Positions 1 to 38,282 of a DNA stretch of 39,925 nucleotides are shown here, in pieces. The notes beneath the pieces were generated by a model, which saw nothing but the letters and a program-made list of their open reading frames with translations, searched no databases and was not told the DNA's origin. The stretch's first letter is position 1. Every line of letters starts with the position of its first letter. The position numbers and the translations under genes are program-made. This DNA is from a virus (lineage: Duplodnaviria > Caudoviricetes), in IMG/VR virus record IMGVR_UViG_3300026546_000010, positions 1 to 39,925 of that record; one strand, given 5' to 3'.

Positions 1-273
1 CAGACACTTGGCTTTGATGATAAGCGCAAGGCAGACATTCTAAAAGTAATGATGGATACATATGCGGTAGTTGCATCAGAAATAGATGCAGACCCTTCTG
101 TTCCAAGTGTATTTACTGCCCCAGCAATACACACACTCGTACTTGATACAATGAGTGATGTTGGTATAGCCATAGGAAACACAACAAGCAAGGCAAAATT
201 CTATTCAGGAGAAATGGGATGGGTAGGGGACTATGCTGGAGAACAACCAATCCAAACAATACCAACAACATAA
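1..273 (+). CDS. Virion structural protein, C-terminal part (N4 gp54-like), 5'-truncated
   Basis: Frame 1 is open from base 1 (QTLGFDDKRKADILKVMMDTY...); position upstream of the gp53-like gene. Confidence 0.5.
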   Translation, partial: QTLGFDDKRKADILKVMMDTYAVVASEIDADPSVPSVFTAPAIHTLVLDTMSDVGIAIGNTTSKAKFYSGEMGWVGDYAGEQPIQTIPTT

Positions 274-283
274 ATGAAATAAA

Positions 284-2548: not shown

Positions 2549-2563
2549 AACGAGGACTATAAT

Positions 2564-3427
2564 ATGAGATACACAGACTCACCATTCAAAGCAGCAACGC
2601 AAAACAGCAGTTTCGCATCAGGAAATTCCGGCAAGTGCTGTCAAAGACTAAAATGGACACCAGATGGAGGTGTTACCAAACAGACACCTAAAACAAAAAT
2701 GCTAAGAAGAAGTGCACACGGAAAAGCATCAGCGAGCACAAGAATGTCATCAGGTGGTGGCGGTGGAGGAGGAGGCGGCGGAGGATGGATGCAGGCAGCT
2801 GGATTGATTATTCAAGCAGTATCAACCTTCGCAAACGTCTACTTGGGGTTCAAACAACTAGAAGTTGCGAACAAGCAAGGTGCAGCCGCATCGTCAAATG
2901 ACAGAAACAATGCATGGCTTGCAAAAGAAAAAATCAGAAACTATCATAATAGAGTTGCGAAACAATCTCAGTATCAAATGCATGATCAATCAATAAAAAG
3001 TGACGCATACCTGAGTAGTCTGTATAACTCCTCTGGAGGGTTGGACGCTCAAATGCGAACAAAAGACTATTCCCCAGAAATCAAATCATATGATTGGAAT
3101 AGTGGCTCTGTCAAGGGGTTCAAAGAAGAGGGTCGAAATGAACAAGCATATAACGACTACCAAAAAGAACTCAAAAGAATACAAGGCGGAAAAACGCAAC
3201 AATCAGCATTTGCTCCATCCACACAAAGTAGAACATTAGGCTCAACAGCACAAAGTGCTTTGGCAACAAATGCACTGGGTGGACCAGATACGCAATCACA
3301 AATCATAACAAAGCCTGGAGCAGTGGTACGAAAAAAATCATTGGGAGCAGAACCCAAAGAAAACAAAGAAGAATTAGCAGCAAACGAAGAACTTAAAAAC
3401 AAGAAAAGTCAGTTGGCTACAGCATAA
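2564..3427 (+). CDS. Putative ejection protein (N4 gp52-like)
   Basis: 287 aa; poly-Gly tract then GW...YLGFKQLEVA hydrophobic segment; RBS GAGGA; synteny. Confidence 0.5.
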   Translation: MRYTDSPFKAATQNSSFASGNSGKCCQRLKWTPDGGVTKQTPKTKMLRRSAHGKASASTRMSSGGGGGGGGGGGWMQAAGLIIQAVSTFANVYLGFKQLEVANKQGAAASSNDRNNAWLAKEKIRNYHNRVAKQSQYQMHDQSIKSDAYLSSLYNSSGGLDAQMRTKDYSPEIKSYDWNSGSVKGFKEEGRNEQAYNDYQKELKRIQGGKTQQSAFAPSTQSRTLGSTAQSALATNALGGPDTQSQIITKPGAVVRKKSLGAEPKENKEELAANEELKNKKSQLATA

Positions 3428-3439
3428 GAAGGATCAATT

Positions 3440-5200: not shown

Positions 5201-5211
5201 GGATAAATAAA

Positions 5212-8200: not shown

Positions 8201-8994
8201 TAACCACTGAGCTGAACAACCTCCCAGTAGAAGAACGGGCAGCTTCGCCAATAAACAAAGAAATAATAACAGCCAAAGCTGATCTACAAGCATTAGTAAA
8301 AAAAGTAAACACGCTTGTAGAAAAGGGGCTAGGGAAGGTAAAAACCAGAAGAGACAAAGTACGAGCAGCGCAGAAGCATTGGCAAAAGAAACCAACGAAA
8401 CAGTCAAACGAACAAACCGAACAGACACCAAAAGATTCCACGCCAGAAACAGAGCAAACAGCTAAACCAGAAACAACACAGCAGTCTCAACAAGAAAGTT
8501 CACAGAAGACGGCACAAGAGCAAGAAAAGCAGCAGGAGGATACCAAGGCACAAGAGCAAGAGAACAGCGCTCAAAATGACAGTGAACCCCCAAAGAAGCA
8601 GAATACGAAAACTGAGCAGAAGCAAGACACCGAAGAACAAAAAACAGAGAAACAAACAACTGAAAATGAACAGACGCAAGAACAAGAGGATAGATCACAG
8701 CAGAAAGAATCAGAGCAAGAAAAAACAATCGACGACATAGATAATGAAGTAATCATCGATTTTTGGAAAAAGCACGAATTCAAACCAGGTGAAGAAGAGA
8801 CAACCGAAGAAACAGAAACAAACGAAGATACAGAAAATGATACAATACAGGCAGTAGATGAAGCTGCATTTGCCGATAAGCGAGCAATTACAGAAGAGGA
8901 TATAAAAACAATGAGCAAAGAAGAGGAATCACTCTTCGACAAAAGACTAGAAGGAATAAAGAAATTCATAGATAATCTCCCAGAGTGCTCATGA
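5212..8994 (+). CDS. Large internal virion protein, probable N-terminal part of a split vRNAP, with an N-terminal SNase/thermonuclease-like domain
   Basis: 1260 aa; IIDGDG..LRAAGYDASE..DKGAYGR match the SNase motifs; Gly/Ala hydrophobic region, EIIQEE motif, Q/E/T/K low-complexity tail; only Cys is the penultimate residue. Confidence 0.6.
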   Translation: MPYSSVEIASKLMGVENPGSRIASDDPNDVTTTIQKEDTIIEREREKAKKIYGSAPVTFSTEEAIKKEEQSDQGWQTGTVYSIIDGDGIFIKEMEGQELRAAGYDASEVEHPGEEHTEREQRNAKRLANMWGVPADSVTTEDVYEQGWKDTTKLLFGLTKTNINEKFKIGDTSYYRTHPPAYNDLNIPIQYKIIDKGAYGRPIVIMKNPITGEIVNQSFDLPGYRMGFKDAAEKAGMKTSDEIQPFLAPLAGAYGSDKKYAYKPKNWDTMDPLQRTKWNLASKKSQNYNQGALEHAFKSFAGTAGSLLAGAGDGLLDYASSISDEALGTTFGNSTLFEDFKDEDIWQRAIGYNDIEEKKNIAAVDQYIKNGDYGKAALHFASNAAIVAPQMLGYLVPVLASMPVAATVWSFDLLSDQKDAYKKATNKDMTLGEQTGALALNYVTSYLEAIVGGKILGKGGWGVVGKQMGKLFKPFTKMVAPLENKAVSKGFAEAAKLAAKKINPQTLTGRVIKRVADAPGAKLGADVVMEIIQEETENVHQEYWAKGGDTKYDSIGKYISEVAKGHVISKDQAISTAVQAGVGHLMMRPKAVAADAARISGVPFKMVGNHFDRREAANLTREDAAALQVDRAAQEKAANAGHAETMKTLEALDSAQTKQDLIDSGVDADTLQKVQVTNGEEVYNKHTDLADKTVEKAISFVNNFSEEGKRDAKDKAEFDRQMKEVINAVGIETKGRTKEEIANDLETMTDEQKGTMLAIIDSTIKGDVGSSMHGIAADIKVDTAQQAAHISRAYVAQAAALRKKHVRNAKKTSNENSYFVRRRQKKVGADKLFHNLPKLINKAVSKGKTNFKFMDDFTTKALIQAKQDFAGNKDVVASIDTVLKSRKTTFKNRADKVDSLISEDGMVGISGEKEIDIRSINDAISQNPTDAFTIATIGDSIDSLAEAKVISKAQQKILHQRLESVSDVNSLHSNFKEEPAAFWKTQMDKTRQQIKDLTTELNNLPVEERAASPINKEIITAKADLQALVKKVNTLVEKGLGKVKTRRDKVRAAQKHWQKKPTKQSNEQTEQTPKDSTPETEQTAKPETTQQSQQESSQKTAQEQEKQQEDTKAQEQENSAQNDSEPPKKQNTKTEQKQDTEEQKTEKQTTENEQTQEQEDRSQQKESEQEKTIDDIDNEVIIDFWKKHEFKPGEEETTEETETNEDTENDTIQAVDEAAFADKRAITEEDIKTMSKEEESLFDKRLEGIKKFIDNLPECS

Positions 8995-9021
8995 TTAATT
9001 GCAAAACAAAGGATAATATAA

Positions 9022-12000
9022 ATGGCCTGCATAAACAAAAAACTAAAAAATAAAATAAAACTCAAAGTCCTACGCTTGGATGCGGACTCATTCAAGAAGA
9101 CATTGGGGTTCGATTTCTATAAATTTCAAGACAATCTTATGGAGAAAATCCTCCATTGGTCATCATCAGATGCATACGTCAAAGAACTAAAAGAAGTGGT
9201 CAAAAACGATGAAATGCGCCAGAAGCTCATTTCTAAACTAAAAAAATCCAATGATGCAAAATGGCTATTTGAGGGAGTTGAGGAGACAGACAAGCTGGGA
9301 ATGATCTCAAGGGCAATAGCGTTCAAACATATTGTGGCAAATGTAAAAATGCAACAAGATATTATCAACAAAACACCAGGAGCAAGAGACGTTGATCTCC
9401 ATGATAAAAAAGGTGAAACAATACAAATAGCAGCAAACTATACATACTTGGCTATTGGAAGAGACATTGCCATTGCAATGGGGGTTCGTCCAACAAGGGT
9501 TCCACCAGCACTAGGAAATGCGTTCTATATGCAAATTGGAAAGGTACAAGTTGAAGCACTAGCTAAGCTACAGAGACAAACAAGAAGCAAAAAAGGTAGT
9601 GGACAAATCAATCTACTGTCTGTTAAAAAACAAGGCAGAACAATTATCAATGGAGAGTATAATAAGGATCATACACCAGTTAAAGGAGAGGGGCCTGTAC
9701 GACAGGCAGAGACTTATGCAATCAATCTAAACTTCTTCGCAAATGGCAATAAGCAAGCAATTGAAGAAGCCTTAATGAAGGGATCGCTTGAAGGAATTGA
9801 TAACACAAACAATAATCTAAGAAACACAATGTCATTTGTCTCTGGGGTAAGTGATCTCTTTGCTCCAAAATTTGAACACCTTCCTTTAAATAAAAGAGAA
9901 GATCAAGGGAAGCCAACTGTAGAAACAGACGGAAGTGTAAGAATAGAACCAAACGAAAAAGACACAAAGAACCTTTCGCCAGAAGGGATAAAAGCTTCAT
10001 TTAGATGGAAAAAAACACTAAGAAGCCTAGCAGAAGGAACGATGGTTGTAAACCAGACCGCACTCAAGGCACTCGGAACCTTGAAGGGGTTCCTTGGCCA
10101 ATTGGACTACCAGGGCAAAGGAATCAGGCTAAGAGATATTAAAAACATCGCAGGATTGACCCCGTACCAGATGCACCAAATATTCGGAACATTCTATCAT
10201 GAATTTTCCTCAAAAGATTCGGAAGCATCAGACTGGGGAGTTTCATCGTCCAAGACAAATCCAATCATAAACACTCTTGTTGGGTTGGACAATTTTATGA
10301 ATAAAAATGGCACAGCGAAGAAACTAATGAATGAAATAGTAGTCTATACAACTACACGTTTTGGGTTTAAAAACAATGTGCTTAATGAGCAATCAAACAA
10401 GCCATTCGCAAGACAAGTCATTGAAGGGCTTCCTGTAAAATACAAAATTGGCGGAACCCAGTTTGGTATACTAGTAAACGGAATGTCAAAAAACTATGGC
10501 ATACCAGAGGCAGATATAGTATCTGGACAGAACAAAAATCTTGAAGCTGTCATAACAAAATATGATCAAATTGCGCAAAAAGATGGGGACTCATTATTGC
10601 AATTCATGGGAGAGCTTGTAAACGGAGAAGTGGAGCTAAATGGCAAAAAATACAAAGTGCCATCAATTGACAATTCGGTCTGGGGGCAACTTGTATTAAT
10701 AGAAAACCTATCCAAGATAAGGGCAGCACAAAGAAGTGGACAAGACGTTGTATCCTTAGCGGCAACAATAGAAGTGGATGCGGTAGGTTCAGGGCCGACA
10801 ATTCAAGCAATGCAATCATTGGGAATCAACGAAGAACCTATACTTAAGTTATTTCAAATGCTAGGCATGACAGAAGAAAGCATAGCTGAAATTGGACCAG
10901 AAAAACTAGCAAATGACTTCTATGGTGTTTTTGGAAACGCCCTTAATGGTACAGAAATAGAAGGGAAAATACAAAAACTTGTTGATCTTAAACTGTTCAG
11001 CAATGAACGAACCATTCATAAAAAAGCAATGATGGTTGTTGGATACGAAGCAGGAAGCGCAACAGCAAAACATGATGTCGCAAATGAGCTGACAAAAGAA
11101 GTCCTCAAGCTTGGAATGGAAGAGGGAATGACGAAAGAAGGACTTGAGTTCCTGAAAAAACAAATCCTAATAATAAATCCTGACCTTGAAATAGGAAATG
11201 TAAAAAATGGAAAAGATCTAGTGCAGACAGCTGGTGTGCAACAAGCAATCCATGAATATTTCTACGACAACTACACAACTGAACTAGACGAAAAGGTGCG
11301 ATTAGTTCTCGACGAATTTCTCGCCAAACGCAAGGGAAAGGTAAGAGACTTTACAGAAACAATACAGAATAACCTACGAAAAGACAAAAAAATAATCACA
11401 AAAATGATGCCCTATGCAGCTAGGGTAATTCTGAATGACCCCGCTCACCCAGATCATAATCCATATGATATGAAAGAAGATTTTCAGGAATGGGCAGCAA
11501 AAGAAAAAAGCAACCTGAAAAAATACGGAATAGAGCTAACGTCAAGACGTATAGTTCTGAAAGACCAAGCAGGTGTAAAAAATGTTCCTGTACAAGAAAA
11601 AATATTCAACATGCTTACTGCAATTGTTAATGCAGTTCACTCAATAGATGCAGGCCAGTTTTTGTTTTCCCATGAAGCAACAATGGCAGAAATCAAAAAG
11701 CAAATAGCCAGTAAAGATACAGACAACTTCACAAAAGAACAATTAAAAATTTCACTTGGGAACAAGAAAAAATTGATGCACGATGGAAATGGTGCAGATG
11801 CATACTACACAGAAGTGTATCAAGAAGAGTATCACAACCAAGCAATAGACGCACACAAACAATATTCAATCGAAGTAGAAATAGCTAAAACAGCACTATT
11901 GTCAACAGACATGGAGCATCAAGAACAAATAGATCACGCAATAGAATTGGTCGCAGAAGCAGAAGCAAGACTCGATGAACAGAAAGAGTCGCTAGAGTTG

Positions 12001-15000
12001 ATCCAAAAGAACAAGAGATTCAAGAAAGGAAAGTTCGCTGATTATTTCACAGATAGCAAAATAGATGCCACCAAACTTCAAGAACATGACTTCGGTACGG
12101 AGCAAGTTGATACCAGCACTCCAGCACGGCTAAAAGAACAATCTCCTGATGTGGAAATGTCCAAGCTAGAGAAAGCAGTCAGAAGCGGTAAAGACGCATA
12201 CATAGACCTTGAGTTTTCATTTGATGAGAACCCCAAGAATGGGCAGAAAGAAATATATCAAATTGCAGCAATCAATAGTAAGGGAGAAGAGTTTGTCAGA
12301 AACTTCTACCCAACCGGAGAGATGGCTGCAAAATACTCAAAAGCGGTAGAAGGGAAAGAGTACCTATCGTTGAAGGAACTAAAAAGTGCAGAAGGCGCAA
12401 AGCCATATTCACAAGAAGCAGTCAATCAAGCACTTGATGAGCTTAATGGACACCTCAATGAAGACTCACTGACAGCCTATGCGGGGTTCTATGCAGACTT
12501 CAAACATATAGACAATTACGAGAACGGGAGAAAACTCCTCTCGTCAAGAGAGCTGATTGATGCACACAAAGCAGCACTACACAAGCTTGGAATGGTAGAC
12601 AATCCGAAGGGATCTACTCAAGGAGAAATAGCCAATAAGCTTGGGGTAGAGCAAGGCACTGACAGCAGAACACATGAAGCGATGTCAGATACAAAAACAC
12701 TGAAAGAGCTGTCAGGGAAATTAGCAAAAAATGATACAAGAGGATCAATATCAGCAATACTAAATGAACTAGGGAAAACAAATGAGTTCCTTGGCGACAT
12801 AGTAAACAAGATTGATTATGATGCACAAGAAAATTCATTTGATCCAAGAACCAGAACACTAAGCTTAAAAAAAGGAGCAAATAGAGAAGCAGTGGGACAT
12901 GAAGTTACACACGCAATAACACTAGATTATATTGCTTCAAGAAAAGGACAACAATCAAGAGAATATAAAAAGATAAAACAAGCATACAAATTCACAAAAA
13001 ATAATATAAAATATTTAAAGCAAAAATTTGCAAATAATCCAGAGATCTTATCATCATTAGAACATATAGCAAATGATAAAGAGAATGTGGGGATTGCAGA
13101 GTTTGTTGCCCTTGGGGCAACAAACACCACATTCAGACAAGACTTAAAATCTGGGTCTATAATAAAAGCAATTAAAGACTTCCTCAAAAATGCAATCAAT
13201 AGACTGCTTAGAAGACCAAAAGACATGAGAGTTACCAATATGGTAGCAGAAGACATGGGACAAGACCTTGTAAAAACCATAGACAAAATCATAAGAGATT
13301 CTGTTGACTTCCAAGACGAAACAAGCTCTGGGCCACAAAAGAAAAAACAACAAACACGGGGAAGAACAGCAACAGAGTTTACCGAAAAACTGGGCATGCC
13401 AAAACAAAATTCCAAGCCAAAGCAAACAACCAAGGAAGTTAGAACCATTCTTAAGGAGCTCGACTGGAAACCATTTAATGACCCCGCTATGTCAAACACC
13501 ATGGATGCACCAATTCTAAAAAGTCTTGAAGATATTAACTCATATACAAGAACAATACTAATTGAATCAATACTTGAGAACCCCACTTTACGTGCAATGA
13601 CAAAAAAACTTGGGGAAAAAATGGATGAGAAATTGTCCAAATATCCAATCTACGCTGATAACAAAAACAGGGCTACTGACCTATGGGAGCACTCACCATT
13701 GCTACAGAAGATGAAAACCTATCTTGCCCCAGAAAGAAGCGGTGATGCCTATACGTTAAACAAGCTTCAAACCTCAATTGCAAATGCAGAAAAGCATGCA
13801 AGACAAATAGAATCAGCCCAGATCAAACAGATCAATGACCTAACAAGGGATCTCTCAAAGGAAGCACAAGAAGGAGTCTTTCACGCTACAACAACTGTTC
13901 CGTTCTTCCATTTATTGAATGATAAAAGTGGAATCGTAAACGAACTTTTACGTTCCAATAACCTTAAGGGGGATATAGAAACAAAGATTGTTGAACTTGC
14001 GAGGGAAAGCCAAATACCAAAAACACATCTTCAGCAGATTGGTGAGTTGGCACAATTACTTGCTCGTAAAAAAGGGCCAAAGGTCATATCACATAAAAAA
14101 ACATTGCCAGTGTACAACCTGCATTCAATTGGTTTCAGTGAACATACACTCCCATATGCCCAAAAGATACTAGCACTACAAACAATGCTCGCAGAACCAA
14201 AGGCTATTGAGGGGTTCAAAGAACTACAAAAGAATCCAGAACTGTTTAAAACAATGGCAGCTGTCTCTGCTGCGCTAAAAACAGCGCATGACAGAGTAAT
14301 GGTCAATGACGCAAACAAGAGAATGTACAAAGAAAATCTTGTTAAAGAACTCTTAAATGAGCCGCTAGAAATGCACGCAATCACAAAAGAAGATTTGGCA
14401 AATGGACACTTTGCAGAATTGAATGGTTGGAGAATTGTCAGACAACCAACTACTGGATATGGTATTGCAGTCCGCAATGCAAAAGACATAACGAACCAAC
14501 CAGGGCTTGGCACAACGTTATCATATAACTTCGCGGATATTACTGTACCAAAAGACAAGTTCATCAAAGCAGATAACTATGTGACTGTCTATGACAGAAA
14601 AGGACAACCGAGAAGAAAACTTGTTTTGACACAAGAAGAGATTGATAGCATAGGAGAAATCAGAACTCCATCAGATGCAATTGTGCGAACATACTCACAA
14701 ATCGCTGCACTAGAGGAAACTGAATCAGCCAGAAAAGCACTGATGTCTGCACAATTCAACAAAAAGCTATCAACAAGAAAGGAAGAGAATCAGTTCGCCG
14801 AAGCACTAAAAGATATGAGAATTGAAGAAGTACCATGGGCAGTATCATTCAATTCAAAAAAAGATGCAATTAAGTGGCTTGCACAAAACAAAGAGGCAAG
14901 ATACAAATACGCTCTTGTTGACAACATGACGCAATTCAATAATGCAAATGAAAAGATACATCTAGTCAGGATTGACATGAAAGATCAACTCATGGGGTTC

Positions 15001-16113
15001 GAGGATGTTGTTGCATTTAAGGATAGCGTATTCTTTAGAAACGCAATGTATACCCTAAGACAAGTAGTGAAAATGACCAAGCTGCATATGACAGTAACCA
15101 ACCCAGCAAAAATAGCAGGAGACACTACATCAAATGTAGCAATCATGCTTGCAATGGGAGTATCACCAACAAGCATTATCAGTGCATTTAAACATGGTCC
15201 TAAGAGACAACGAGAAATCGCTGCACTCCAAATAGAACAAATAGACCTGCGGATGCAAATAGATGCAACCAGCAGCCAGACAAGAAAGAAGAAACTCAGG
15301 GCACAAATGAGAGAGGTCAAAAAGAAGATAGCAGAACATCCATACGGAATGCTACTTATGGAAGGAATGATCCAGTCAATCTCAACAGAAATCCTAGACA
15401 AAGACAAATCAGTCATTGCGGGGGTTCAGCATGACGTAGAAGGATTACTCAACAAATACCTAGCCCTTGAAGACAAGGAAGGAAAAACAGACCTAAACAA
15501 CGCAATAGCAGCACTCCTCTCTAAAGGGATCAACCTTGAGACAATACTTACCTTTATAGGTAAGGGAACAGAGAATAGAAAGGTAGTAGGAACCCTTGGT
15601 AAAACACTGCACAATGCAGGTATAGGCCTTAAAGACATCAAAGCAAATAAAGATGTAGCCAAGTATATTACAGAATGGATGGCAACACCAGAAAGTGGAG
15701 CGGTAAGGGTTGGATCAGCATTGGTAGAAAGTGTTGACATCACATCTCGATATGCACTCCTGCAACATTTAATGAAAAACAAAAAAATGTCAAAAGAAGA
15801 AGCAGTTCCAAAAGTTCTTGAGCTCTTCATTGACTACAAAGTAAATATGCCGAAGGAGCTCAAGTACGCAAGTGACACTGGGGTTCTGCTCTTCCCATCA
15901 TTCTGGATGAGAATACAACGATCTGTGTATAGACTTGCACGACAGAATCCAGCTACAGTCACAGCTGGAATGTCGCTTGAAGCACTTATGGATGTACATA
16001 TCCCTACAATTTATGACTCATTTATAGGGGCGAAGGAACACTTCTTCTATACACCACAGATAGATGAATCAACCTTCTTCCCGACCCATATCTTCGATTT
16101 CGTCCCCAAATAA
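9022..16113 (+). CDS. Virion-encapsidated single-subunit RNA polymerase (N4 vRNAP-like) with DEDDh exonuclease and zincin-like domains
   Basis: Motif A EVDAVGSGP (~10771), motif B RTIHKKAMMVVGY (~11008), VHSIDA, motif C MHDG (~11776); IDLE...AYAGFYAD...HEAMSD (12196-12690); HEVTH...EFVA (12898-13110); 2363 aa with one Cys. Confidence 0.85.
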   Translation: MACINKKLKNKIKLKVLRLDADSFKKTLGFDFYKFQDNLMEKILHWSSSDAYVKELKEVVKNDEMRQKLISKLKKSNDAKWLFEGVEETDKLGMISRAIAFKHIVANVKMQQDIINKTPGARDVDLHDKKGETIQIAANYTYLAIGRDIAIAMGVRPTRVPPALGNAFYMQIGKVQVEALAKLQRQTRSKKGSGQINLLSVKKQGRTIINGEYNKDHTPVKGEGPVRQAETYAINLNFFANGNKQAIEEALMKGSLEGIDNTNNNLRNTMSFVSGVSDLFAPKFEHLPLNKREDQGKPTVETDGSVRIEPNEKDTKNLSPEGIKASFRWKKTLRSLAEGTMVVNQTALKALGTLKGFLGQLDYQGKGIRLRDIKNIAGLTPYQMHQIFGTFYHEFSSKDSEASDWGVSSSKTNPIINTLVGLDNFMNKNGTAKKLMNEIVVYTTTRFGFKNNVLNEQSNKPFARQVIEGLPVKYKIGGTQFGILVNGMSKNYGIPEADIVSGQNKNLEAVITKYDQIAQKDGDSLLQFMGELVNGEVELNGKKYKVPSIDNSVWGQLVLIENLSKIRAAQRSGQDVVSLAATIEVDAVGSGPTIQAMQSLGINEEPILKLFQMLGMTEESIAEIGPEKLANDFYGVFGNALNGTEIEGKIQKLVDLKLFSNERTIHKKAMMVVGYEAGSATAKHDVANELTKEVLKLGMEEGMTKEGLEFLKKQILIINPDLEIGNVKNGKDLVQTAGVQQAIHEYFYDNYTTELDEKVRLVLDEFLAKRKGKVRDFTETIQNNLRKDKKIITKMMPYAARVILNDPAHPDHNPYDMKEDFQEWAAKEKSNLKKYGIELTSRRIVLKDQAGVKNVPVQEKIFNMLTAIVNAVHSIDAGQFLFSHEATMAEIKKQIASKDTDNFTKEQLKISLGNKKKLMHDGNGADAYYTEVYQEEYHNQAIDAHKQYSIEVEIAKTALLSTDMEHQEQIDHAIELVAEAEARLDEQKESLELIQKNKRFKKGKFADYFTDSKIDATKLQEHDFGTEQVDTSTPARLKEQSPDVEMSKLEKAVRSGKDAYIDLEFSFDENPKNGQKEIYQIAAINSKGEEFVRNFYPTGEMAAKYSKAVEGKEYLSLKELKSAEGAKPYSQEAVNQALDELNGHLNEDSLTAYAGFYADFKHIDNYENGRKLLSSRELIDAHKAALHKLGMVDNPKGSTQGEIANKLGVEQGTDSRTHEAMSDTKTLKELSGKLAKNDTRGSISAILNELGKTNEFLGDIVNKIDYDAQENSFDPRTRTLSLKKGANREAVGHEVTHAITLDYIASRKGQQSREYKKIKQAYKFTKNNIKYLKQKFANNPEILSSLEHIANDKENVGIAEFVALGATNTTFRQDLKSGSIIKAIKDFLKNAINRLLRRPKDMRVTNMVAEDMGQDLVKTIDKIIRDSVDFQDETSSGPQKKKQQTRGRTATEFTEKLGMPKQNSKPKQTTKEVRTILKELDWKPFNDPAMSNTMDAPILKSLEDINSYTRTILIESILENPTLRAMTKKLGEKMDEKLSKYPIYADNKNRATDLWEHSPLLQKMKTYLAPERSGDAYTLNKLQTSIANAEKHARQIESAQIKQINDLTRDLSKEAQEGVFHATTTVPFFHLLNDKSGIVNELLRSNNLKGDIETKIVELARESQIPKTHLQQIGELAQLLARKKGPKVISHKKTLPVYNLHSIGFSEHTLPYAQKILALQTMLAEPKAIEGFKELQKNPELFKTMAAVSAALKTAHDRVMVNDANKRMYKENLVKELLNEPLEMHAITKEDLANGHFAELNGWRIVRQPTTGYGIAVRNAKDITNQPGLGTTLSYNFADITVPKDKFIKADNYVTVYDRKGQPRRKLVLTQEEIDSIGEIRTPSDAIVRTYSQIAALEETESARKALMSAQFNKKLSTRKEENQFAEALKDMRIEEVPWAVSFNSKKDAIKWLAQNKEARYKYALVDNMTQFNNANEKIHLVRIDMKDQLMGFEDVVAFKDSVFFRNAMYTLRQVVKMTKLHMTVTNPAKIAGDTTSNVAIMLAMGVSPTSIISAFKHGPKRQREIAALQIEQIDLRMQIDATSSQTRKKKLRAQMREVKKKIAEHPYGMLLMEGMIQSISTEILDKDKSVIAGVQHDVEGLLNKYLALEDKEGKTDLNNAIAALLSKGINLETILTFIGKGTENRKVVGTLGKTLHNAGIGLKDIKANKDVAKYITEWMATPESGAVRVGSALVESVDITSRYALLQHLMKNKKMSKEEAVPKVLELFIDYKVNMPKELKYASDTGVLLFPSFWMRIQRSVYRLARQNPATVTAGMSLEALMDVHIPTIYDSFIGAKEHFFYTPQIDESTFFPTHIFDFVPK

Positions 16114-19633: not shown

Positions 19634-20125
19634 CTATCTCCCTGTACTGCCAAATCCACCTGTACGTTCTACTTTCTCACCTACAGCTATCATTCCCGTA
19701 TTGTGGCTCATTAAAATTGCCTGACCTATTCTGTCACCCTTGTGAACATGGTATGGATCATCGCTATTTATATTGGTAATAACCATTTTAATTTCATTTG
19801 GATAGTCCAAATCAACGATGCCGACACCATTTGCAAGTATAAGTCCCCTCAAAGAGAGAGAGCTACGAATCATCAACTGAAGGTAGCTTGAAGCCATGAA
19901 CACCTCATATACATGTTTAATGTCCATGCCAAATCCATAATCTGAATCGTTGATTTTATCCAAAATTGCTTGAGTATCTATAACGATACCAAGACCAACA
20001 AGTTTTGTTTGCCCAATTTCAATACTAACATCTTCGTTGGCATATAAATCAACAGCCGCTGAATACTTTGTACTACGTTTAGGTGGGGTTCCGCCATTAA
20101 TTGTTTTCAGTATTTCGTACTTCAT
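19634..20125 (-). CDS. dut: Trimeric dUTPase
   Basis: All five motifs: AAVDL, RSS, GIVDLDY, RIGQ, RTGGFGSTG. Confidence 0.93.
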   Translation of the reverse strand: MKYEILKTINGGTPPKRSTKYSAAVDLYANEDVSIEIGQTKLVGLGIVIDTQAILDKINDSDYGFGMDIKHVYEVFMASSYLQLMIRSSLSLRGLILANGVGIVDLDYPNEIKMVITNINSDDPYHVHKGDRIGQAILMSHNTGMIAVGEKVERTGGFGSTGR

Positions 20126-20751
20126 TTGTTTGATTCCTTTTTGTGTAATTCATTGCAGTATTTGTTAGCCTTGTCCCAAGTCACTTCTGTCTTGGAGGAC
20201 TCAGACCACTCTAATTTTCCCTTCTTTATCCTTTTGACACAACGAACATAGGATGCACTATACTTATAGAAACTGTTCGTATATCCACTGTTGAAATTAA
20301 TAAACCACGCCATATGTGGATTATCAGCACGTATTGTAGAGCTCCAGTATGCCTTAGAAACAAAGCCATTTATCTTCAAGCCACCTTTGTCGTAATCAAA
20401 CATACCTTGAAGCTCCATAATTGTTGGCAGCTTCCATTCTATGTTCAATTCATTACAATATTGGTTTGCCTTGTCCCAAGACATCGCGGATTCAGAAGAT
20501 TCTGACCATATTAAGTCACCAGTTTCGGTCTCTCTGACACAACGCACACAAAAAGTAAAGGATTTATCATAATAATCTGTATGACCATTGTCAAAATCGA
20601 CGACCCATGCAACGCCAGTTTTGTATGCATATGTGGTAGAACCCCAGTAATCATCTGAATTGAAGCCACTTATCTTCGGCTTCCCTTTCTCTCTATCAAA
20701 CATGCGAGAGAGTTCATCTATTGTCGGTAGCCTCCACTTACCTCTCATCAT
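20122..20751 (-). CDS. DUF1566 (Lcl C-terminal, C-type lectin fold) protein, two permuted units
   Basis: Two copies of W(R/K)LPT..EL...YW.ST...AW...F..G...VRCV...L.WS....W..A..YC. Confidence 0.85.
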   Translation of the reverse strand: MMRGKWRLPTIDELSRMFDREKGKPKISGFNSDDYWGSTTYAYKTGVAWVVDFDNGHTDYYDKSFTFCVRCVRETETGDLIWSESSESAMSWDKANQYCNELNIEWKLPTIMELQGMFDYDKGGLKINGFVSKAYWSSTIRADNPHMAWFINFNSGYTNSFYKYSASYVRCVKRIKKGKLEWSESSKTEVTWDKANKYCNELHKKESNK

Positions 20752-21665
20752 TCATCCTTTTACAGTGTTCGCTTGCTTCATCCCACGTCATTTTATTTTC
20801 AAGGGATTTAGACCACTTGAGACCCCCATCGTCACCTTCCCTAACACAACGCACGTAACAGCTACCGTCCTTATCGTAGTTGCTCTGGTAGCCATTGTAG
20901 AAATCGACATACCACGCATAGCCGGTGTAGCCTTCATAGGTGGTAGAAGACCAGTAATAGTCAGACGCGAATCCATCTATTTTTGGCTTGCTATCTTCGT
21001 AATCAAAAACACCTTGTAGCTCATTGACTGTTGGCAATCGCCATTTACTTTTCATTGCTTAGCCTTTCGCAGTATTTCTTTGCTTCGCTCCATGTCATTT
21101 CATCTTTAGAGGGTCTTGACCATTCCAGCTTACCCTTTTCAATTTCCTTAACGCAACGGACGTAATAGGTGAAGGACTTACCGTTGTAGTCCGTGTTGCC
21201 AGTATGGAAATAGACGATCCACGCATAGTCTGTGTGGTGGACATGCGTAGTAGAACTCCAATAGCCGTTCGAGGTGAATCCATCTATTTTTGGCTTCCCA
21301 CATTCATAATCGAAAGCATTACGTAGCTCCTCTATGGTTGGCAAACGCAAGTTACTTTTTTCATTGTTCAGCTCCTCGCAATATTTCTTTGCTTCGCTCA
21401 ATGTCATTCTATTTTTGGTAGATTCCGACCATTTCAATTTACCTTTTTTATTTTCTCTCACACAGCGCACGCAATAGGTACTAAGCTTATTGCCGTTGTA
21501 CGCGTAGCCACGATGGAAATGAACGATCCATACACCGTTCATATTGTGAGAATACGGGGTAGAGCTCCAATAGTAGTATGGAGTAAATCCATCTACTTTT
21601 GGTCTTCCATTTTTGTAATCAAACGCTTCATGAAGTTCATCCACTGTTGGTAAACGCCAGTTTCC
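20130..21665 (-). repeat. Tandem array of five ~300-bp DUF1566 units
   Basis: Protein-level repeat; shared DNA such as AAAATAGATGGATTC and GCAGTATTTCTTTGCTTCGCTC / GCAATATTTCTTTGCTTCGCTC. Confidence 0.85.
20738..21055 (-). CDS. DUF1566 protein, single permuted unit
   Basis: WRLPTVNEL...YWSSTT...AWYVDFYNG...YVRCVR...LKWS...MTWDEASEHC. Confidence 0.85.
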   Translation of the reverse strand: MKSKWRLPTVNELQGVFDYEDSKPKIDGFASDYYWSSTTYEGYTGYAWYVDFYNGYQSNYDKDGSCYVRCVREGDDGGLKWSKSLENKMTWDEASEHCKRMNDER

Positions 21666-21992
21666 ACTTTTACCACTTTCGTAGGTGTATTTCTTAGTTT
21701 CCACAATCTCACAAGCTTTTACGACATACTCTTTAAGTATCGTATTGCTAAATCGTTTTGCCGCGTCAATCATCTTTTTAGAGGGGACTGTTCCGTCGCC
21801 ATCAATGTCACCGTATTCTTCGTCAAGGTCCTCTATCAATGGAGACAGGATGTCATTTATTGGATCAATACTTGCTTGCTTCGTTTTAAGCCTATTTACA
21901 ACCACGGGAAAGTTCAAGTTGCCCTCTGCTTCAATCGCTTCTTTAGGCGTATCATATAGATTGTCAGTTCCCTCTACTGCGTAATATGTCAT
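21045..21992 (-). CDS. Acidic phage domain fused to two DUF1566 units
   Basis: Start MTYYAVEG at 21992 (RBS AAGGA); two RLPT...VRCV...MT units. Confidence 0.82.
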   Translation of the reverse strand: MTYYAVEGTDNLYDTPKEAIEAEGNLNFPVVVNRLKTKQASIDPINDILSPLIEDLDEEYGDIDGDGTVPSKKMIDAAKRFSNTILKEYVVKACEIVETKKYTYESGKSGNWRLPTVDELHEAFDYKNGRPKVDGFTPYYYWSSTPYSHNMNGVWIVHFHRGYAYNGNKLSTYCVRCVRENKKGKLKWSESTKNRMTLSEAKKYCEELNNEKSNLRLPTIEELRNAFDYECGKPKIDGFTSNGYWSSTTHVHHTDYAWIVYFHTGNTDYNGKSFTYYVRCVKEIEKGKLEWSRPSKDEMTWSEAKKYCERLSNEK

Positions 21993-22036
21993 TTGTTCAT
22001 CCTTGTATTCTTCTTCTGTTTTCAAAAAAACATGAA

Positions 22037-22645
22037 TTATACACCTCCACCAAGCAAAGGAGGCAGTGTATTTGCAAGCTGGAGGAGGGGTTCCTTCCAG
22101 CGACCCCACCATTCCAAGGATTCAAGATCCATTCCATCAATTACATTGTCGGGGAAATTCTTCCATTCCTCAATAAGATACCGTTTGCACCCTATCTTCA
22201 TATGGTTGTCAACGATAACCACAACATACTTACCGGTATAAACTAAGAGATACTTTTCTGTTGGAAAGCCAAAAATCTTCATCTCTGGAACGTGCATTGT
22301 TTGAACAACAATAGCTTCATTGGCTTGAACAAATTCAGCCTCTATAATATCAGCCTTTAGGCGATTGGTAACGAGTCGTCTGCATACAATCTTATTTGCA
22401 ACAACGCTTCTTGCTTCAAATTCGTTAACTTTAAAACAATTCCCAGTGACTGTAATAACATGAGCTTTGAGCTTGAGGTTACCATAGAGACCTTTTCCTG
22501 CTTTGATATGACCTCTAACCTTTAGGCGAGGAACAATGATCTCAATATCATCATCACAAACAATGCTTTCATCCAGAACATACCATTCTTCGTTATCTAT
22601 CGTTTCCGTATAGATGCCAGGATAATTTGTGTTTATTACCATCAT
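22037..22645 (-). CDS. Beta-helix-like protein with C-terminal IGC..W..F.D..I..MD...WW domain
   Basis: Short alternating hydrophobic repeats; the C-terminal domain resembles that on phage pentapeptide-repeat proteins. Confidence 0.55.
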   Translation of the reverse strand: MMVINTNYPGIYTETIDNEEWYVLDESIVCDDDIEIIVPRLKVRGHIKAGKGLYGNLKLKAHVITVTGNCFKVNEFEARSVVANKIVCRRLVTNRLKADIIEAEFVQANEAIVVQTMHVPEMKIFGFPTEKYLLVYTGKYVVVIVDNHMKIGCKRYLIEEWKNFPDNVIDGMDLESLEWWGRWKEPLLQLANTLPPLLGGGV

Positions 22646-33727: not shown

Positions 33728-35140
33728 TTATTGATAATACTCGTTAAACATCTGAATGATTGCAGCATCAGACATATCCTCAAGATAGTCATCTACTTCA
33801 AGAAGAATCCGAAGCATTCTGACGACAATTACACGCTTCATAGAAGCAGGCTCCGCATTAAATGTGTTCACAAACACAAGTATTTTACCAGAAAAGTGCA
33901 TATTGCTGAATGACAACAATGGAGCCCCAATATTACCCATAAACTCAAACAAGGAGACAAGCTCTTCATCAGAGAATGTTCCTAACAATTCATTAGTAGC
34001 CGACAGGGTAAACCTCTCAAATGGAGACATAGGTTGGGGTTCACCCATATCTGCAAACAAGCTTTTGCTATGATTGCCTCTATAAGTAACCTTTCTGCCT
34101 TGGAGCTCATATGGAGTATGATGGGTCGTAGATGTAACAATTGAAGTAGTAATATTGTCTGGGTCGATCAAGCTGTAATCAACAGGAAAGTATTCATTGT
34201 CCCACTTTTCAAGCAAGAAACGAAACAAATCAGTCTTAAGCCCAGCACTTTTATCTTTTAGGTCAAGAAGTACATAGCTATACTTTGCCTTCTCGGAAGG
34301 CTCTTGATCAGGCTCTATCCCGAACAATTCATGAATTGGGGTCGGTTGAACAGTGGGGGCAGGGAAAAATTGTCTTCCGCCAACAATGGTAACATTTTGG
34401 CCACGAAGATAATTTAACTTATCATCGGAACTACTGAACAGTCTATATTCACTATGGATCAGCTCAGCCAGCTTATCACCGTGCTGTAAAATTCCACTAA
34501 ATGAAGGAATGTTCTGACCATCTTGCAGTGGGTAGACAACACCCGGGTTGCTAGAATCTTTCCTTAGATCAACAGTAGAAAAGTTCGAGATACCAGTATG
34601 ACTATACCGATATTCTCCATCGCTGCCAATAGCGAGAACCGATTCATTCTCCTTGACCTTCCTGAACGTAAGCCCTTCACCTGGGTGAGCATGAATAGTA
34701 TTGAACCCCACAAGGTTCCATTCTACATGTTCAAACAAATGACTAATGAACTGGAATGTTTTGCTTTTGTAAAGCTCTTTAATCTTTTTATGAGACTTTT
34801 TGATGGCTTTTTCGTTTGCAGCAGAAACATCATCAAGATGAAAATGGACAGAACCATAACTCACTTGCTGTGGATAATTATAAGCCACCAGTGGGAATCC
34901 AATGTATAAAAGAGTGTTATCTATAAGCACTTTTCCAACAAGAGCAGTATAATGGAACTGCCATTCATTCTTGAACTCACGAACTTCACCAGAAGCAGCC
35001 TGGATTTCTTCCAGAGCACGATTGCTCCAGAAGAGTAAACTAAACAAGTTAGTTCCAGCCTTGTCTGTTATTTCCTTAGTCTCCTGCTTGTTATTCATCA
35101 GCTGAGACCTCATCGCTGTCGTCTTCTTGTTGTACTGCAT
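33728..35140 (-). CDS. JAB/MPN+ metalloisopeptidase-like protein
   Basis: NEWQ glutamate, YPQQVS..SV, IHAHP (~34682-34693), FSTVD (~34568-34582). Confidence 0.72.
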   Translation of the reverse strand: MQYNKKTTAMRSQLMNNKQETKEITDKAGTNLFSLLFWSNRALEEIQAASGEVREFKNEWQFHYTALVGKVLIDNTLLYIGFPLVAYNYPQQVSYGSVHFHLDDVSAANEKAIKKSHKKIKELYKSKTFQFISHLFEHVEWNLVGFNTIHAHPGEGLTFRKVKENESVLAIGSDGEYRYSHTGISNFSTVDLRKDSSNPGVVYPLQDGQNIPSFSGILQHGDKLAELIHSEYRLFSSSDDKLNYLRGQNVTIVGGRQFFPAPTVQPTPIHELFGIEPDQEPSEKAKYSYVLLDLKDKSAGLKTDLFRFLLEKWDNEYFPVDYSLIDPDNITTSIVTSTTHHTPYELQGRKVTYRGNHSKSLFADMGEPQPMSPFERFTLSATNELLGTFSDEELVSLFEFMGNIGAPLLSFSNMHFSGKILVFVNTFNAEPASMKRVIVVRMLRILLEVDDYLEDMSDAAIIQMFNEYYQ

Positions 35141-36401
35141 TTTCTTCCTTTATGTTTCTTAATTGATTAATTGCCTTCTGCAACGCAGGAAATTCCGAAA
35201 GAATAATTTCGTCCGCAAAGCTAGATGACATTACGGCTGATGCAAAGAGCATCTTGAAATCAGCCATCTTTTCATCTGGAATGTCCTCAAGTCCAAGTGA
35301 TGTTATAACATCCTGGATACTACCAACTTTAAGCACTTCTGGCTTCATGCCAATACGTTCCATCGTTCTATCAACAGAGGACCGGTTAAATATCTCAAAG
35401 GAAACAGCAATATTAAGTGCATTCCAAAGAGCATGATCAGGAGCACAAACAGCAGTATTCAGTGGGGAATCAAAATTGCAATAATTCAATGCAGCAAATC
35501 CATGAATGGAATAGGCTGCACCAGAATGTGTGCAAATCCCATAGCGAGCTCCATCATCAAAAGATAACTTATTGTTCTCGTCAATATCAATACTATACTT
35601 GTTGTGATGAACCACAGAGAAGGACATGTTTGCATGAAGCAAAGGTCCTAAACTCCAAGAATTGCCATCATAACCAAGAGCATATCCATAGAAAGGAAAT
35701 ACAAGTCCCTTGTATGAGCCAAGATGCGCTGGAGAAAACATGAAGGCATTATCTGGCGAAGCCAGGTTCCCTTCCGTATCAGTAAAGATCGATGCATAAT
35801 CAACCTTAACTCTGCTATGATGCACCTTCTCAGCGAAGTGCACTTTAGTATAGAGTCTATGCTCGGTAGCAACACGATCATCAATAGCGATATATTTATA
35901 GATAGCAGACTTATAGTCAATATAATTGGACAAATCCTTGTCAACATAGGTACTGTCTGTAACGATGAGGCATGAATACTTACGAGTATCAAGCGGTTCA
36001 CCATTAACAACGAGTCTCTTTGCTATATAAGGATGAAGAAGATTAAACTTATTACGCTCCTTGTCAACAACAATAAGACCAACAAACGATGATCCGGACT
36101 CCAAAAAAACAGAGTACCCAATCTCAATACAGTCATTGAGAGATAGATCAAAGTCGCCAATTTGTGTATATTCATATCCAATAAAGGATGGTCGAGTTAG
36201 AAACTCGGTCTTGGGATAAAACTGTTCAACAGTTTCATTAACCAAATGAATAGCACTATGAGCGTTCACAAAAGCAAATGTAGTTTCGCTAGGAAACTCA
36301 GAGCTAAAGTCCTGTGTGCTTTCTTCCTTTTCACTATTAACTATATTATCAAATTCATCAATGGAATATTGAAGAATTTTATTCTCTAACATTGTGTGCA
36401 T
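35091..36401 (-). CDS. Prokaryotic E2-like (ubiquitin-conjugating fold) protein
   Basis: Start MHTMLE 1 nt after the E1 stop; PLLHANMS...GICT...LNYCNFDSP resembles the E2 HPN..G.IC motif; lies between E1 and JAB. Confidence 0.55.
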   Translation of the reverse strand: MHTMLENKILQYSIDEFDNIVNSEKEESTQDFSSEFPSETTFAFVNAHSAIHLVNETVEQFYPKTEFLTRPSFIGYEYTQIGDFDLSLNDCIEIGYSVFLESGSSFVGLIVVDKERNKFNLLHPYIAKRLVVNGEPLDTRKYSCLIVTDSTYVDKDLSNYIDYKSAIYKYIAIDDRVATEHRLYTKVHFAEKVHHSRVKVDYASIFTDTEGNLASPDNAFMFSPAHLGSYKGLVFPFYGYALGYDGNSWSLGPLLHANMSFSVVHHNKYSIDIDENNKLSFDDGARYGICTHSGAAYSIHGFAALNYCNFDSPLNTAVCAPDHALWNALNIAVSFEIFNRSSVDRTMERIGMKPEVLKVGSIQDVITSLGLEDIPDEKMADFKMLFASAVMSSSFADEIILSEFPALQKAINQLRNIKEENAVQQEDDSDEVSADE

Positions 36402-36402
36402 C

Positions 36403-37602
36403 TTACCACCCCCTTGAAAGAATGCGTTGATCACTAAGATCAAATTCAAATTGCTTCCTGTTGAGACGCACATCATTACGCACGTCCCATAACACTGAAG
36501 AAGATGAATAGCTAAATGAGTCCAAAATCGGAGTATGTGGCACAAGATTATTAGCATCTTGAGTCACAAGCAACTTGGCGAGATCATCATCTACATCTGC
36601 AAGAAATTTAATAAACTCAAATGCTGCAAACATTTGGTTCAGATAAAACTTCTCTAAAGCAATAAGTCCATACGTTTCATTAAGGAACCCCACATCAACT
36701 GGAGGGTTAATCCGAAGAGAGATATATCTCCCTTTGTGAGTTAACGCAAACCAGTTGTGTCCCCTTGCTTGAAGCCTCTGACGAGTAGCCATGTCTGGGG
36801 CTCCAACGATAATATGATCAGTAGGGAATGTGCTAGTATAATAGTCATCATAGATAGCCTTCGGAGTCAACCTATTCATTAATCGTGTAGGAATTGAATT
36901 TATCTTCAATGTACCATTTGTTGGAACAAACGGAATTCTAGGTAAGTTATCAAATTCGTACTTATCATTATCTGCAACCCATATACTTTTAAACAAGCCA
37001 TCATAGTCTGCAATACGAGCAAACTCTGACATCCAGTAAAGCAGGTTAGACCCAGAGCCTCCAACTCCAAGCACAAACAATTGATGTTTTCTTTTCTTAA
37101 GCTTCGAGAGAACCCCTCTAAGCTCAGTCTTGCTATGGCTGATAAACTTGAGAATAACCTTATCAGGAATTTTTCTTACATCAAGATATTCAGCACATGA
37201 GTCAGTAAGAGCAACACATTTTTGACTTCGTATTTGTTTTTCATCATATGACACTGAAGGCTTAGTAACAATCCTAGAGAGCAAAGGAATATTGCGTACA
37301 AGATGTGTCATCAGAAATGCCTCTGCAAAATAATTCTTGTTGTTGTTTGTAACAACTGTTTTCTGAGAAGTTTCACGAAAATAGTATCGATTTACTAATC
37401 GTGACATCAAGGTTTTCCCCAAGTTCATTTCCTTATATCGGAAAAAAACATCGTTCGACAACCCTTTTGCTTTATAGCCATCATTTACAATTTCATGTCC
37501 ATTGGTTGATACCAATGAACCATCATTATCTTTAAAAGATGCCTTGCCATAATACTCCGATCCAGTAAAAAACGGAGCACTATATCCCTGTTTATTGTTC
37601 AT
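36403..37602 (-). CDS. ThiF/E1-like adenylating enzyme
   Basis: VLGVGGSGS, ADNDKYEFDNLPR, LKI, IVGAPD..TR, LNQMFAA. Confidence 0.82.
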   Translation of the reverse strand: MNNKQGYSAPFFTGSEYYGKASFKDNDGSLVSTNGHEIVNDGYKAKGLSNDVFFRYKEMNLGKTLMSRLVNRYYFRETSQKTVVTNNNKNYFAEAFLMTHLVRNIPLLSRIVTKPSVSYDEKQIRSQKCVALTDSCAEYLDVRKIPDKVILKFISHSKTELRGVLSKLKKRKHQLFVLGVGGSGSNLLYWMSEFARIADYDGLFKSIWVADNDKYEFDNLPRIPFVPTNGTLKINSIPTRLMNRLTPKAIYDDYYTSTFPTDHIIVGAPDMATRQRLQARGHNWFALTHKGRYISLRINPPVDVGFLNETYGLIALEKFYLNQMFAAFEFIKFLADVDDDLAKLLVTQDANNLVPHTPILDSFSYSSSSVLWDVRNDVRLNRKQFEFDLSDQRILSRGW

Positions 37603-37672
37603 TCTATCTCCCTTTGTAATATATTAGTAAAGACTAAAAAGATAATCTTAAATAATATATAAACACAAATAG

Positions 37673-37692
37673 GCCACGTATCTCTACGCGGC
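37673..37692 (-). terminator. GNRA-capped hairpin, probable attenuating terminator
   Basis: GCCGCGTA-GAGA-TACGTGGC then CTATTTGTGTTT, just after the 47-aa ORF. Confidence 0.6.
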
Positions 37693-37698
37693 ACAAAT

Positions 37699-37842
37699 TT
37701 AGATCCCAGAGTCACTTGACGCACTAAGTGTTTGTGAGCTAGGGGTTCTCACCTGTATAGGCTGACCGCCATTGGCAGCCCCTTTTTTCTCTACGGCCTC
37801 GCGGATAATCCGCTGAGCTTCTGTCTCTTTTTGCTCGGCCAT
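37699..37842 (-). CDS. 47-aa peptide, candidate conjugated modifier (not in ORF track)
   Basis: MAEQKETEAQRIIREAVEKKGAANGGQPIQVRTPSSQTLSASSDSGI; near-perfect RBS AAGGAGGTG; TAATG coupling to the upstream gene. Confidence 0.78.
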   Translation of the reverse strand: MAEQKETEAQRIIREAVEKKGAANGGQPIQVRTPSSQTLSASSDSGI

Positions 37843-38282
37843 TATTCACCTCCTTTATAAGTATCGTTACTGAAAAGACTAGAGTCGTCACATTCATCAT
37901 CGGCAGACTGCTCATCGACCTCTCCAAAGAGGTCAAACTCGTCAATAGCCTCAATGAATTGGTTCATCATTCCGCGAACATCCACGGAATTACCAAGGTC
38001 ACGCATTGCCGCATCAACCATTGCGGTTGACGCAGCTACCGCGTTGGGCTTGGTTGCGAACCACTTGATAACAACGCCTGCGAAGATGTTTGCCACGACA
38101 GCTTTACCCCAAGGGGTATAGAGATACTTTTTAGCCATCTTGCCTTTCCCTTTCAGGTTCTTGGCAATAATAGCTACAATGCGGTCATTGAGGACCCCAC
38201 CAATCTCTTGCTTCGTGACAGTCTTTGTGGCATCAGCGTTAGCTGCCATTAGTGCGGATAGTACCGCTTTTGTTTCGATCAT
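37842..38282 (-). CDS. Conserved phage protein (YxxTPxGKxVVAN family) with acidic tail
   Basis: 146 aa; RBS AAGGAG; Ala-rich helical; ends YKGGE. Confidence 0.7.
   Translation of the reverse strand: MIETKAVLSALMAANADATKTVTKQEIGGVLNDRIVAIIAKNLKGKGKMAKKYLYTPWGKAVVANIFAGVVIKWFATKPNAVAASTAMVDAAMRDLGNSVDVRGMMNQFIEAIDEFDLFGEVDEQSADDECDDSSLFSNDTYKGGE

Follow-up and report, generated by a model that had tools for sequence, protein, structure and literature searches.

A four-gene phage cassette encoding E1-like, conserved-cysteine and JAB-type proteins together with a candidate peptide tag

Known conjugation systems and the phage cassette

Cyclic oligonucleotide-based antiphage signalling systems (CBASS), Bil and Bub are host or mobile-element systems for which the portions of the literature available to us report or propose a link to anti-phage defence. 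Among bacteria and mobile elements, the available text of Iyer 2006 (PMC1779556) distinguishes operon types 6a-6e; the only phage JAB that it mentions serves in tail assembly. Here we describe a cassette of four open reading frames (ORFs), all on the minus strand at 33728..37842 of the virus record IMGVR_UViG_3300026546_000010 (the window, i.e., the whole stretch of 39,925 nucleotides analysed), which encode a candidate tag peptide, a ThiF/E1-like enzyme, a conserved-cysteine protein (Cys protein) and a JAB-type protein. With a probability of about 0.6, we read this cassette as a ubiquitin-style ligation relay that uses the short peptide as tag, a reading that builds on the gene order, co-conservation, E1 fold and invariant residues observed. 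The cassette would work like Bil and Bub, yet on the features tested it falls outside Bil, Bub, PRTRC and CBASS. A full-text literature search, supplements and subscription papers excepted, returned no description of a phage cassette of peptide, E1, Cys protein and JAB.

Bub (formerly 6E) shares with the cassette an E1 that lacks a catalytic Cys and carries an invariant crossover Tyr (Y311 in the window, 19/19 sequences, equated by sequence position), a JAB that exposes the Gly of the tag (a predicted step here) and, in the available text of PMC11601596, the lack of an E3. As described there, the Bub tag (BubA) is a beta-grasp ubiquitin-like protein (Ubl), whereas that of the cassette is a peptide of 38-57 residues; the Bub E2 uses Ser and has no Cys, whereas the candidate carrier of the cassette has an invariant Cys (150/150) plus an invariant Ser; and the Bub domains are fused and encoded by hosts or mobile elements, whereas the cassette genes are separate and lie on phages. 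Bub also comprises BubE (DUF6527), and no DUF6527 match was found in 30 window proteins, both neighbours of the cassette included. Bil (BilABCD, formerly 6c; PMC10557695) resembles the cassette in encoding tag, E2 (a candidate carrier in the cassette), JAB and E1 by four unfused genes, and in a JAB that clips off the short extension behind the last Gly of the tag (Gly97), a step predicted for the cassette peptide. However, BilA is a beta-grasp protein and the peptide, by length and composition, is not; the E1 of Bil, BilD, has several domains and a catalytic Cys, whereas no conserved Cys was found in the cassette E1; and Bil is a host anti-phage system with a different gene order.

PRTRC or 6d operons (TIGR03736, PF14460; available text of PMC1779556) likewise hold a stand-alone ThiF, a JAB and a Cys-bearing E2-like gene, with a similar motif order near the Cys (P..N-[IV]...V-C-x-G...S-P). 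In the same source, 6d E2s have a His C-terminal to the Cys; a His that follows the Cys in 136/150 members of the cassette family (a Tyr in the window) would be a candidate counterpart. Nevertheless, the cassette E1 scored 12.9 against a TIGR03736 cut-off of 144.75 bits, PF14460 had no match in the cassette, in G000 (E<=10) or in 151 genomes, and the two PRTRC-type ThiFs examined carry a Cys in the crossover region that the cassette E1 lacks. The PRTRC tag is described as beta-grasp, and no ParB or helical partner was seen with the cassette. Since its tag appears too short for a ubiquitin fold, the cassette is not assigned to Bil, Bub or PRTRC.

Type II CBASS (Cap2/Cap3) resembles the cassette in joining E1/E2 chemistry to a JAB. 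There the handle is the C-terminal tail of the signalling enzyme and the E2 and E1 are fused, whereas in the cassette E1 and carrier are encoded separately and a free peptide would serve as tag. The scanned window proteins included no CD-NTase or effector. In the available text of PMC11601596, type II CBASS acts on the signalling enzyme and not on a Ubl.

In the proposed relay, the JAB would cut the peptide tail after an invariant Ser-Gly and expose the Gly, as BilC does at Gly97-Ala98 (PMC10557695, available text), and the ThiF-fold E1, by analogy with known families, would adenylate it. The subsequent steps are put forward more cautiously: the peptide may be handed off through Tyr311 of the E1, as through Y370 in Bub, or straight from the adenylate, might be carried as a thioester on Cys290 of the Cys protein and transferred to a lysine of a target protein, and might be removed again from conjugates by the JAB. 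The Tyr hand-off is suggested because Bub E1s, which have no catalytic Cys, need an invariant crossover Tyr (PMC11601596, available text), and because the two PRTRC-type ThiFs examined do have a Cys in that region. We would guess at a role in middle infection, on a phage or host protein, because the cassette sits among transcription and replication genes. A more specific version, which we offer tentatively as possible rather than probable, is a phage conjugation system with an unfolded minimal peptide as modifier, an E1 Tyr that passes it to a Cys carrier not recognisable as UBC, and a trimming JAB that can consist of two separately encoded halves, the assembly of which could serve as a switch. 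Under the relay reading in general, E1/E2/JAB-type chemistry would be in the hands of viruses, with a tag of 40-50 residues and at least 386 divergent clusters mainly on phage contigs; this would reveal the minimal requirements of an E1 relay, would allow the mixing of Tyr and Cys intermediates to be tested, and might yield a compact, orthogonal protein-labelling tool.

Conservation of the cassette, its peptide and its E1-like enzyme

The four consecutive and co-oriented genes that an earlier note on this DNA had described were all found at their place, as were the gap of 1 nucleotide (nt) between the E1 and Cys-protein genes (36402), the overlap of the Cys-protein and JAB genes (50 nt) and every motif that it had quoted (Table 1). 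Each of the four starts is preceded by a purine-rich run like a Shine-Dalgarno (SD) sequence, and the length of the Cys protein is counted from the ATG behind such a run.

Conservation was followed in 26 loci besides the window, picked by JAB-based scans alone, in which the E1, Cys protein and JAB were located with profiles of the three enzymes. The three genes were adjacent and in the same order in 21 of the 26 loci, and the contigs of the remaining five begin at, inside or after the Cys-protein gene. Loci L001-L011 had contributed to the profiles; among those that had not (L012-L027), 14 of 16 held all three enzymes and two were cut short. In addition, an ORF of 38-57 codons precedes the E1 gene in 19/19 loci (the window among them) whose upstream DNA is long enough. 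Because the arrangement recurs in 21/26 related loci it is more than chance, and the co-conservation of the four genes, on which the earlier proposal depended, holds. The cassette is real and conserved, and is likely to be a variant of ubiquitin-like conjugation with a candidate carrier.

A profile search with the Cys protein gave 386 clusters (50% identity, E<=0.001), the listing being confined to the 150 best. The three window enzymes, together with three relatives, had no tblastn match in 50,697 GenBank phage records, a set that may lack near-identical records, and single-protein scans of viral contigs found nothing. In GTDB genomes, none of 21 candidates found with exact JAB patterns carried the cassette, an exact-pattern scan that does not prove absence from cells, and an exact Cys-protein pattern met two short contigs of one metagenome-assembled genome, one of which encodes an E1 and a Cys protein that hardly differ from their counterparts in the phage locus L016. 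The cassette was met almost only on phage-like contigs. This distribution, and the use of such chemistry by host defences against phages (PMC10557695, PMC11601596, available text), would suit a counter-defence decoy in which the peptide mimics a tail or the JAB strips host conjugates (CBASS Cap2, Bil). We consider this highly improbable, given that an own E1 and carrier, a fixed gene order and invariant catalytic residues would be unnecessary for a decoy; counter-defence is, on the other hand, compatible with a peptide-tag relay, as its purpose.

The 19 cassette peptides represent 17 distinct sequences, most of them preceded by a strong SD, and lie 42-108 nt from the E1 gene in 18/19 loci and 995 nt from it in L014, where an ORF for a Cys-rich protein of 295 residues, by eye homing-endonuclease-like, stands between the two genes (L014:5786-6673). 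Each has an N-terminal amphipathic stretch followed by a variable linker, and in most of them [ST]-hydrophobic-x5-Ser-Gly comes next. Ser-Gly (S45 and G46 in the window) are the sole invariant residues in 15 aligned peptides; those before it vary freely, apart from the hydrophobic position in most, and those after it are 1-8 unconserved residues in all 19 (a single residue in 14), so that none of the 19 has a free C-terminal Gly. The window peptide follows this layout, with an amphipathic N-terminal stretch, a low-complexity linker and a C-terminal T-L-S-A-S-S-D-S-G followed by I47. With Ser-Gly, a disposable tail and no free Gly, the peptides look like precursors to be trimmed, and the reactive end after trimming is predicted to be G46 (codon 37707-37705). 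Of 975 short ORFs, 25 fitted the C-terminal pattern, namely 18 cassette peptides and seven background ORFs. Beta-grasp domains align over about 57-73 residues (PMC10557695, available text); judged by length and composition, the cassette peptides, with 38-57 residues of low complexity and 0-1 aromatic residues, are too short and too poor in aromatics for a beta-grasp or ubiquitin fold.

The predicted model of the window E1 had a mean pLDDT of 71, mostly above 80 in the core and mostly under 65 in an N-terminal extension whose length varies among relatives. Foldseek of this model gave 134 matches at E<=0.001, among them ThiF (1zud, E 9.2e-7, probability 1.00), UBA7, Uba4, UBA5, PaaA and MccB, which confirmed the adenylation fold behind the previous ThiF/E1 assignment. 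The motif residues of the window E1 are GxGGxG 179-184, D211, N219-x-x-R222, K233 and GAPD 267-270. Those of the ATP site (G179, G181, G182, D/E211, N219 and R222) are kept in 18/18 full-length rows and K233 in 17/18, and R274, H289 and E309-x-Y311-G312 (36678-36667) are invariant in 19/19 sequences, with Y311 just before the last long helix of the model, the place of the catalytic Tyr in Bub E1s if sequence position is taken as guide. No conserved Cys column was present in the 19 aligned E1s, the only Cys of the window E1 being C129 and C136.

Curated libraries matched the window E1 to ThiF (E 0.042), PRTRC_ThiF (E 0.051) and a PADLOC E1-E2 model (E 0.0074), and gave no match for the other three cassette proteins of the window. 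PRTRC_ThiF was the most frequent weak NCBIfam match (6/19 E1s, best E 0.015), hhalign aligned the E1 to a PRTRC-type ThiF with a probability of 92%, and a search of PDB sequences with the E1 profile returned E1 enzymes at E 0.015 or weaker. A related E1 had weak tblastn matches on plasmids (E 0.7 and 0.9), both in operons with Prok-E2_D, JAB and ThiF, which speaks in favour of the ligation relay. One PRTRC-type plasmid operon (L033) holds between the JAB start and ThiF a reverse-transcriptase-like ORF with a YADD motif, probably a group II intron (L033:3176-4751).

With ThiF-ThiS as top fold match of the E1, a sulfur-carrier relay was also considered, in which the trimmed peptide would be adenylated, become a thiocarboxylate via a persulfide on the Cys protein and give its sulfur to the modification of phage DNA, a tRNA or a cofactor. 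Sulfur carriers trimmed by a JAB occur in siderophore and cysteine pathways. As the E1 lacks a conserved Cys, the sulfur could come from a separate Cys protein; JAB trimming of carriers is also discussed in the available text of PMC1779556. On the other hand, the tag has neither the beta-grasp body nor the Gly-Gly end of ThiS/MoaD, no desulfurase, rhodanese or sulfur-acceptor enzyme was present among 30 window proteins (of a record 48% complete), and the identifiable neighbours vary between lineages, and we regard this relay as decidedly unlikely.

The candidate carrier, the JAB protein and a peptide-maturation alternative

Conservation of the Cys protein was analysed in an alignment of 150 sequences (A7), in which 147 of the 148 other listed matches were combined with the window copy and two close relatives. 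A7 is numbered from 36392, so that N258, C290 and S312, counted from 36401, are N255, C287 and S309 in A7. Although the relatives are mostly at 13-22% identity, G105, N117, P233, N255, C287 and S309 (A7) are invariant in 150/150. The Cys lies behind the invariant Asn and before a His kept in 136/150 (H304), and the invariant Ser follows it by 22 residues. A catalytic Cys in this protein is well supported by the alignment. The HPN-type His of the HAN motif occurs in 4/150 relatives; in the window copy and its two close relatives (3/150), His 253 is paired with Tyr 304, possibly a compensating swap.

Despite a confident predicted model (mean pLDDT 86.5), the full-length Cys protein had no fold match among solved structures, the lists being filled by parts outside the Cys domain. 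Searches of the ESM Atlas and of PDB sequences gave no usable match, hhalign of the whole length against single Prok-E2_D proteins gave nothing, and one uncharacterised phage protein was matched (E 6.8e-10). Alignment of the core to seven Prok-E2_D proteins had an hhalign probability of 1.4%, with Cys on Cys and Ser-Pro on Ser-Pro, though not above shuffled controls. Of the E2-like character proposed previously, the invariant Cys (150/150) and Asn stood, whereas a UBC fold or profile was not confirmed and the His of HAN proved rare.

For the JAB, identification rests on the metal motif E...HxH...S..D, which is present as the earlier note had it and is conserved: E59, H150, H152, S188 and D191 are invariant in 6/6 sequences, and additional whole JABs carry the motifs too, the pattern being unmatched in L016. 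Searches of the JAB against PDB sequences and the ESM Atlas gave no match.

Several observations weigh against a ligation relay. Four groups of loci are near-duplicates (L005/L006, L017-L021, L022/L023 and L025/L026), because of which the independent lineages number fewer than 26. Y311 was matched to Bub Y370 by sequence position and not by superposition. Pfam support for the JAB is weak, with a Prok-JAB match in one of 13 members (E 0.013). No UBC or Prok-E2 Pfam match (E<=0.5) was found in the 118 of the 150 Cys-protein relatives that were scanned nor in 12 further ones; the core scored 17.9 against the seven Prok-E2_D proteins, compared with up to 18.3 for 40 column-shuffled controls; and the window copy has a Tyr at the family His position (304). 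Finally, the E1 model also matched PaaA (E 4.4e-6, 360 columns) and MccB, and the N-terminal region of the E1 had faint winged-helix matches (WH_AprA, E 0.17; ArnR, E 0.02), both of which are also compatible with peptide-maturation chemistry.

These matches, together with the leader-like helical N-terminus and Ser/Gly-rich end of the peptide and the lack of a UBC match in the Cys protein, would fit a maturation pathway like those of ribosomally synthesized and post-translationally modified peptides (RiPPs). In such a pathway the JAB and E1 would process the peptide, the Cys protein would be a tailoring enzyme (for a small molecule or ring), and the modified peptide would act alone, e.g., as inhibitor of an enzyme of the host or of a rival phage. 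The E1-type RiPP enzymes PaaA and MccB also resemble the cassette in having a ThiF-fold enzyme with an N-terminal extension and an adjoining short peptide gene. In E1-type RiPP clusters a winged-helix domain (RRE) on the E1 binds the leader; the cassette E1 shows at its N-terminus the faint matches given above, in a region modelled with low confidence. However, ThiF, UBA7 and Uba4 outrank PaaA in the fold matches, the E1 N-terminus is poorly modelled and variable in length, and the variable residues before Ser-Gly and random tail of 1-8 residues suit a handle better than a bioactive core. The peptide conserves only Ser-Gly and a hydrophobic residue seven before the Gly. PaaA/MccB clusters are not known to have a JAB or Cys carrier, and a scan of 30 window proteins revealed neither an exporter nor an immunity gene. 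We therefore consider RiPP-like maturation unlikely, and prefer the ligation relay.

The JAB is split into two genes directly after HxHP in 15/26 relatives (Table 1), which separates the His ligands from the Ser/Asp ligands. In the 14 of 15 split JABs inspected at the DNA level, the FSxxD half has its own SD and start codon, 8-610 nt downstream of the first half, and in several split loci an unrelated ORF of 58-199 codons lies between the halves. Most whole relatives have 5-7 residues between HxHP and FSxxD; the window copy and its close relatives have at the split point, between HAHPG and FSxxD, an insert of 28 residues that may be a re-fusion. An E1 tree gave no order of events for split and whole JABs. 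Ribosomal hopping and a self-splicing intron were both rejected: each downstream half is preceded by an SD and start codon of its own, inspection showed neither a conserved pair of matching landing codons nor a shared intron-like sequence (an RNA-family scan was not run), and the gaps vary from about 8 to 610 nt, some of them with unrelated ORFs. A JAB naturally cut between its metal ligands is a separate, directly testable oddity.

Genome context and coordinates

The window is a linear virus record with an estimated completeness of 48%. Its phage origin, assumed in the earlier note, is borne out by an N4-like virion RNA polymerase (a protein of 2363 residues, family match E 6.7e-24) and a primase whose listed best GenBank matches are phages of 70-77 kb at about 25% identity, which we take to be N4-like. 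The cassette is flanked by a DUF7566 gene and a nuclease-helicase-primase block, in agreement with the position beside an exonuclease-helicase block noted before. "Lytic", by contrast, is not supported: the record is incomplete, and the source of one relative with a split JAB (L002, G002) lists it as a provirus, although it encodes an N4-type RNA polymerase. DUF7566 adjoins the cassette in one sub-lineage only (L001, L004, L009 and L010); in other lineages the cassette lies between a gene for a single-subunit RNA polymerase, whose best matches are annotated N4 gp15/gp16, and a DNA polymerase-like gene, and the identifiable neighbours vary from lineage to lineage.

Table 1. Positions of the cassette genes, motifs and neighbouring features (window coordinates unless a locus is named)
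Feature	Position	Strand	Basis or remark
Candidate tag peptide, 47 aa	37842-37699	minus	ORF with SD-like run
ThiF/E1-like adenylating enzyme, 399 aa	37602-36403	minus	fold and motifs
Conserved-cysteine protein (candidate carrier, E2 role), 436 aa	36401-35091	minus	invariant Cys
JAB/JAMM-type metalloprotease by motif, 470 aa	35140-33728	minus	motif
E1 motif GVGGSGSN	37068-37045	minus	located
E1 motif DNDKYEFDNLPR	36972-36937	minus	located
Cys-protein motif HAN	35636-35628	minus	located
Cys-protein motif GICT	35540-35529	minus	Cys codon 35534-35532
His-before-Asn and Tyr-for-His sites of Cys protein	35628-35636, 35466-35489	minus	A7 alignment
JAB motif EWQFH	34966-34952	minus	located
JAB motif HAHP	34693-34682	minus	located
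JAB motif FSTVD	34582-34568	minus	located
JAB 28-aa insert, residues 155-182	34595-34678	minus	alignment with relatives
Split-JAB loci	L002:10387-10396, L011:1487-2098, L012, L013, L017-L027		gene order
DUF7566 / phrog_16673 protein, upstream neighbour	37842..38282	minus	not core part
PD-(D/E)XK nuclease, downstream	33718-32852	minus	context only
SF2 helicase, downstream	32861-31197	minus	context only

Elsewhere in the window, positions 1-16113 form a plus-strand block of very large ORFs (754, 586, 1260 and 2363 codons) with a strong AT skew of up to 0.55, the last of which is the one that matches the virion RNA polymerase family. At 20122-22112, beside a dUTPase gene, two adjacent genes each have two matches to the Lcl C-terminal domain (PF07603, E 3e-38 and 3e-40). 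Upstream of the cassette in L001, an ORF of 199 codons (L001:6009-6608) ends in a G-F-G-D-F-R-P-T-Y-G-R-G motif, which is reminiscent of Cas7/RAMP-like proteins.

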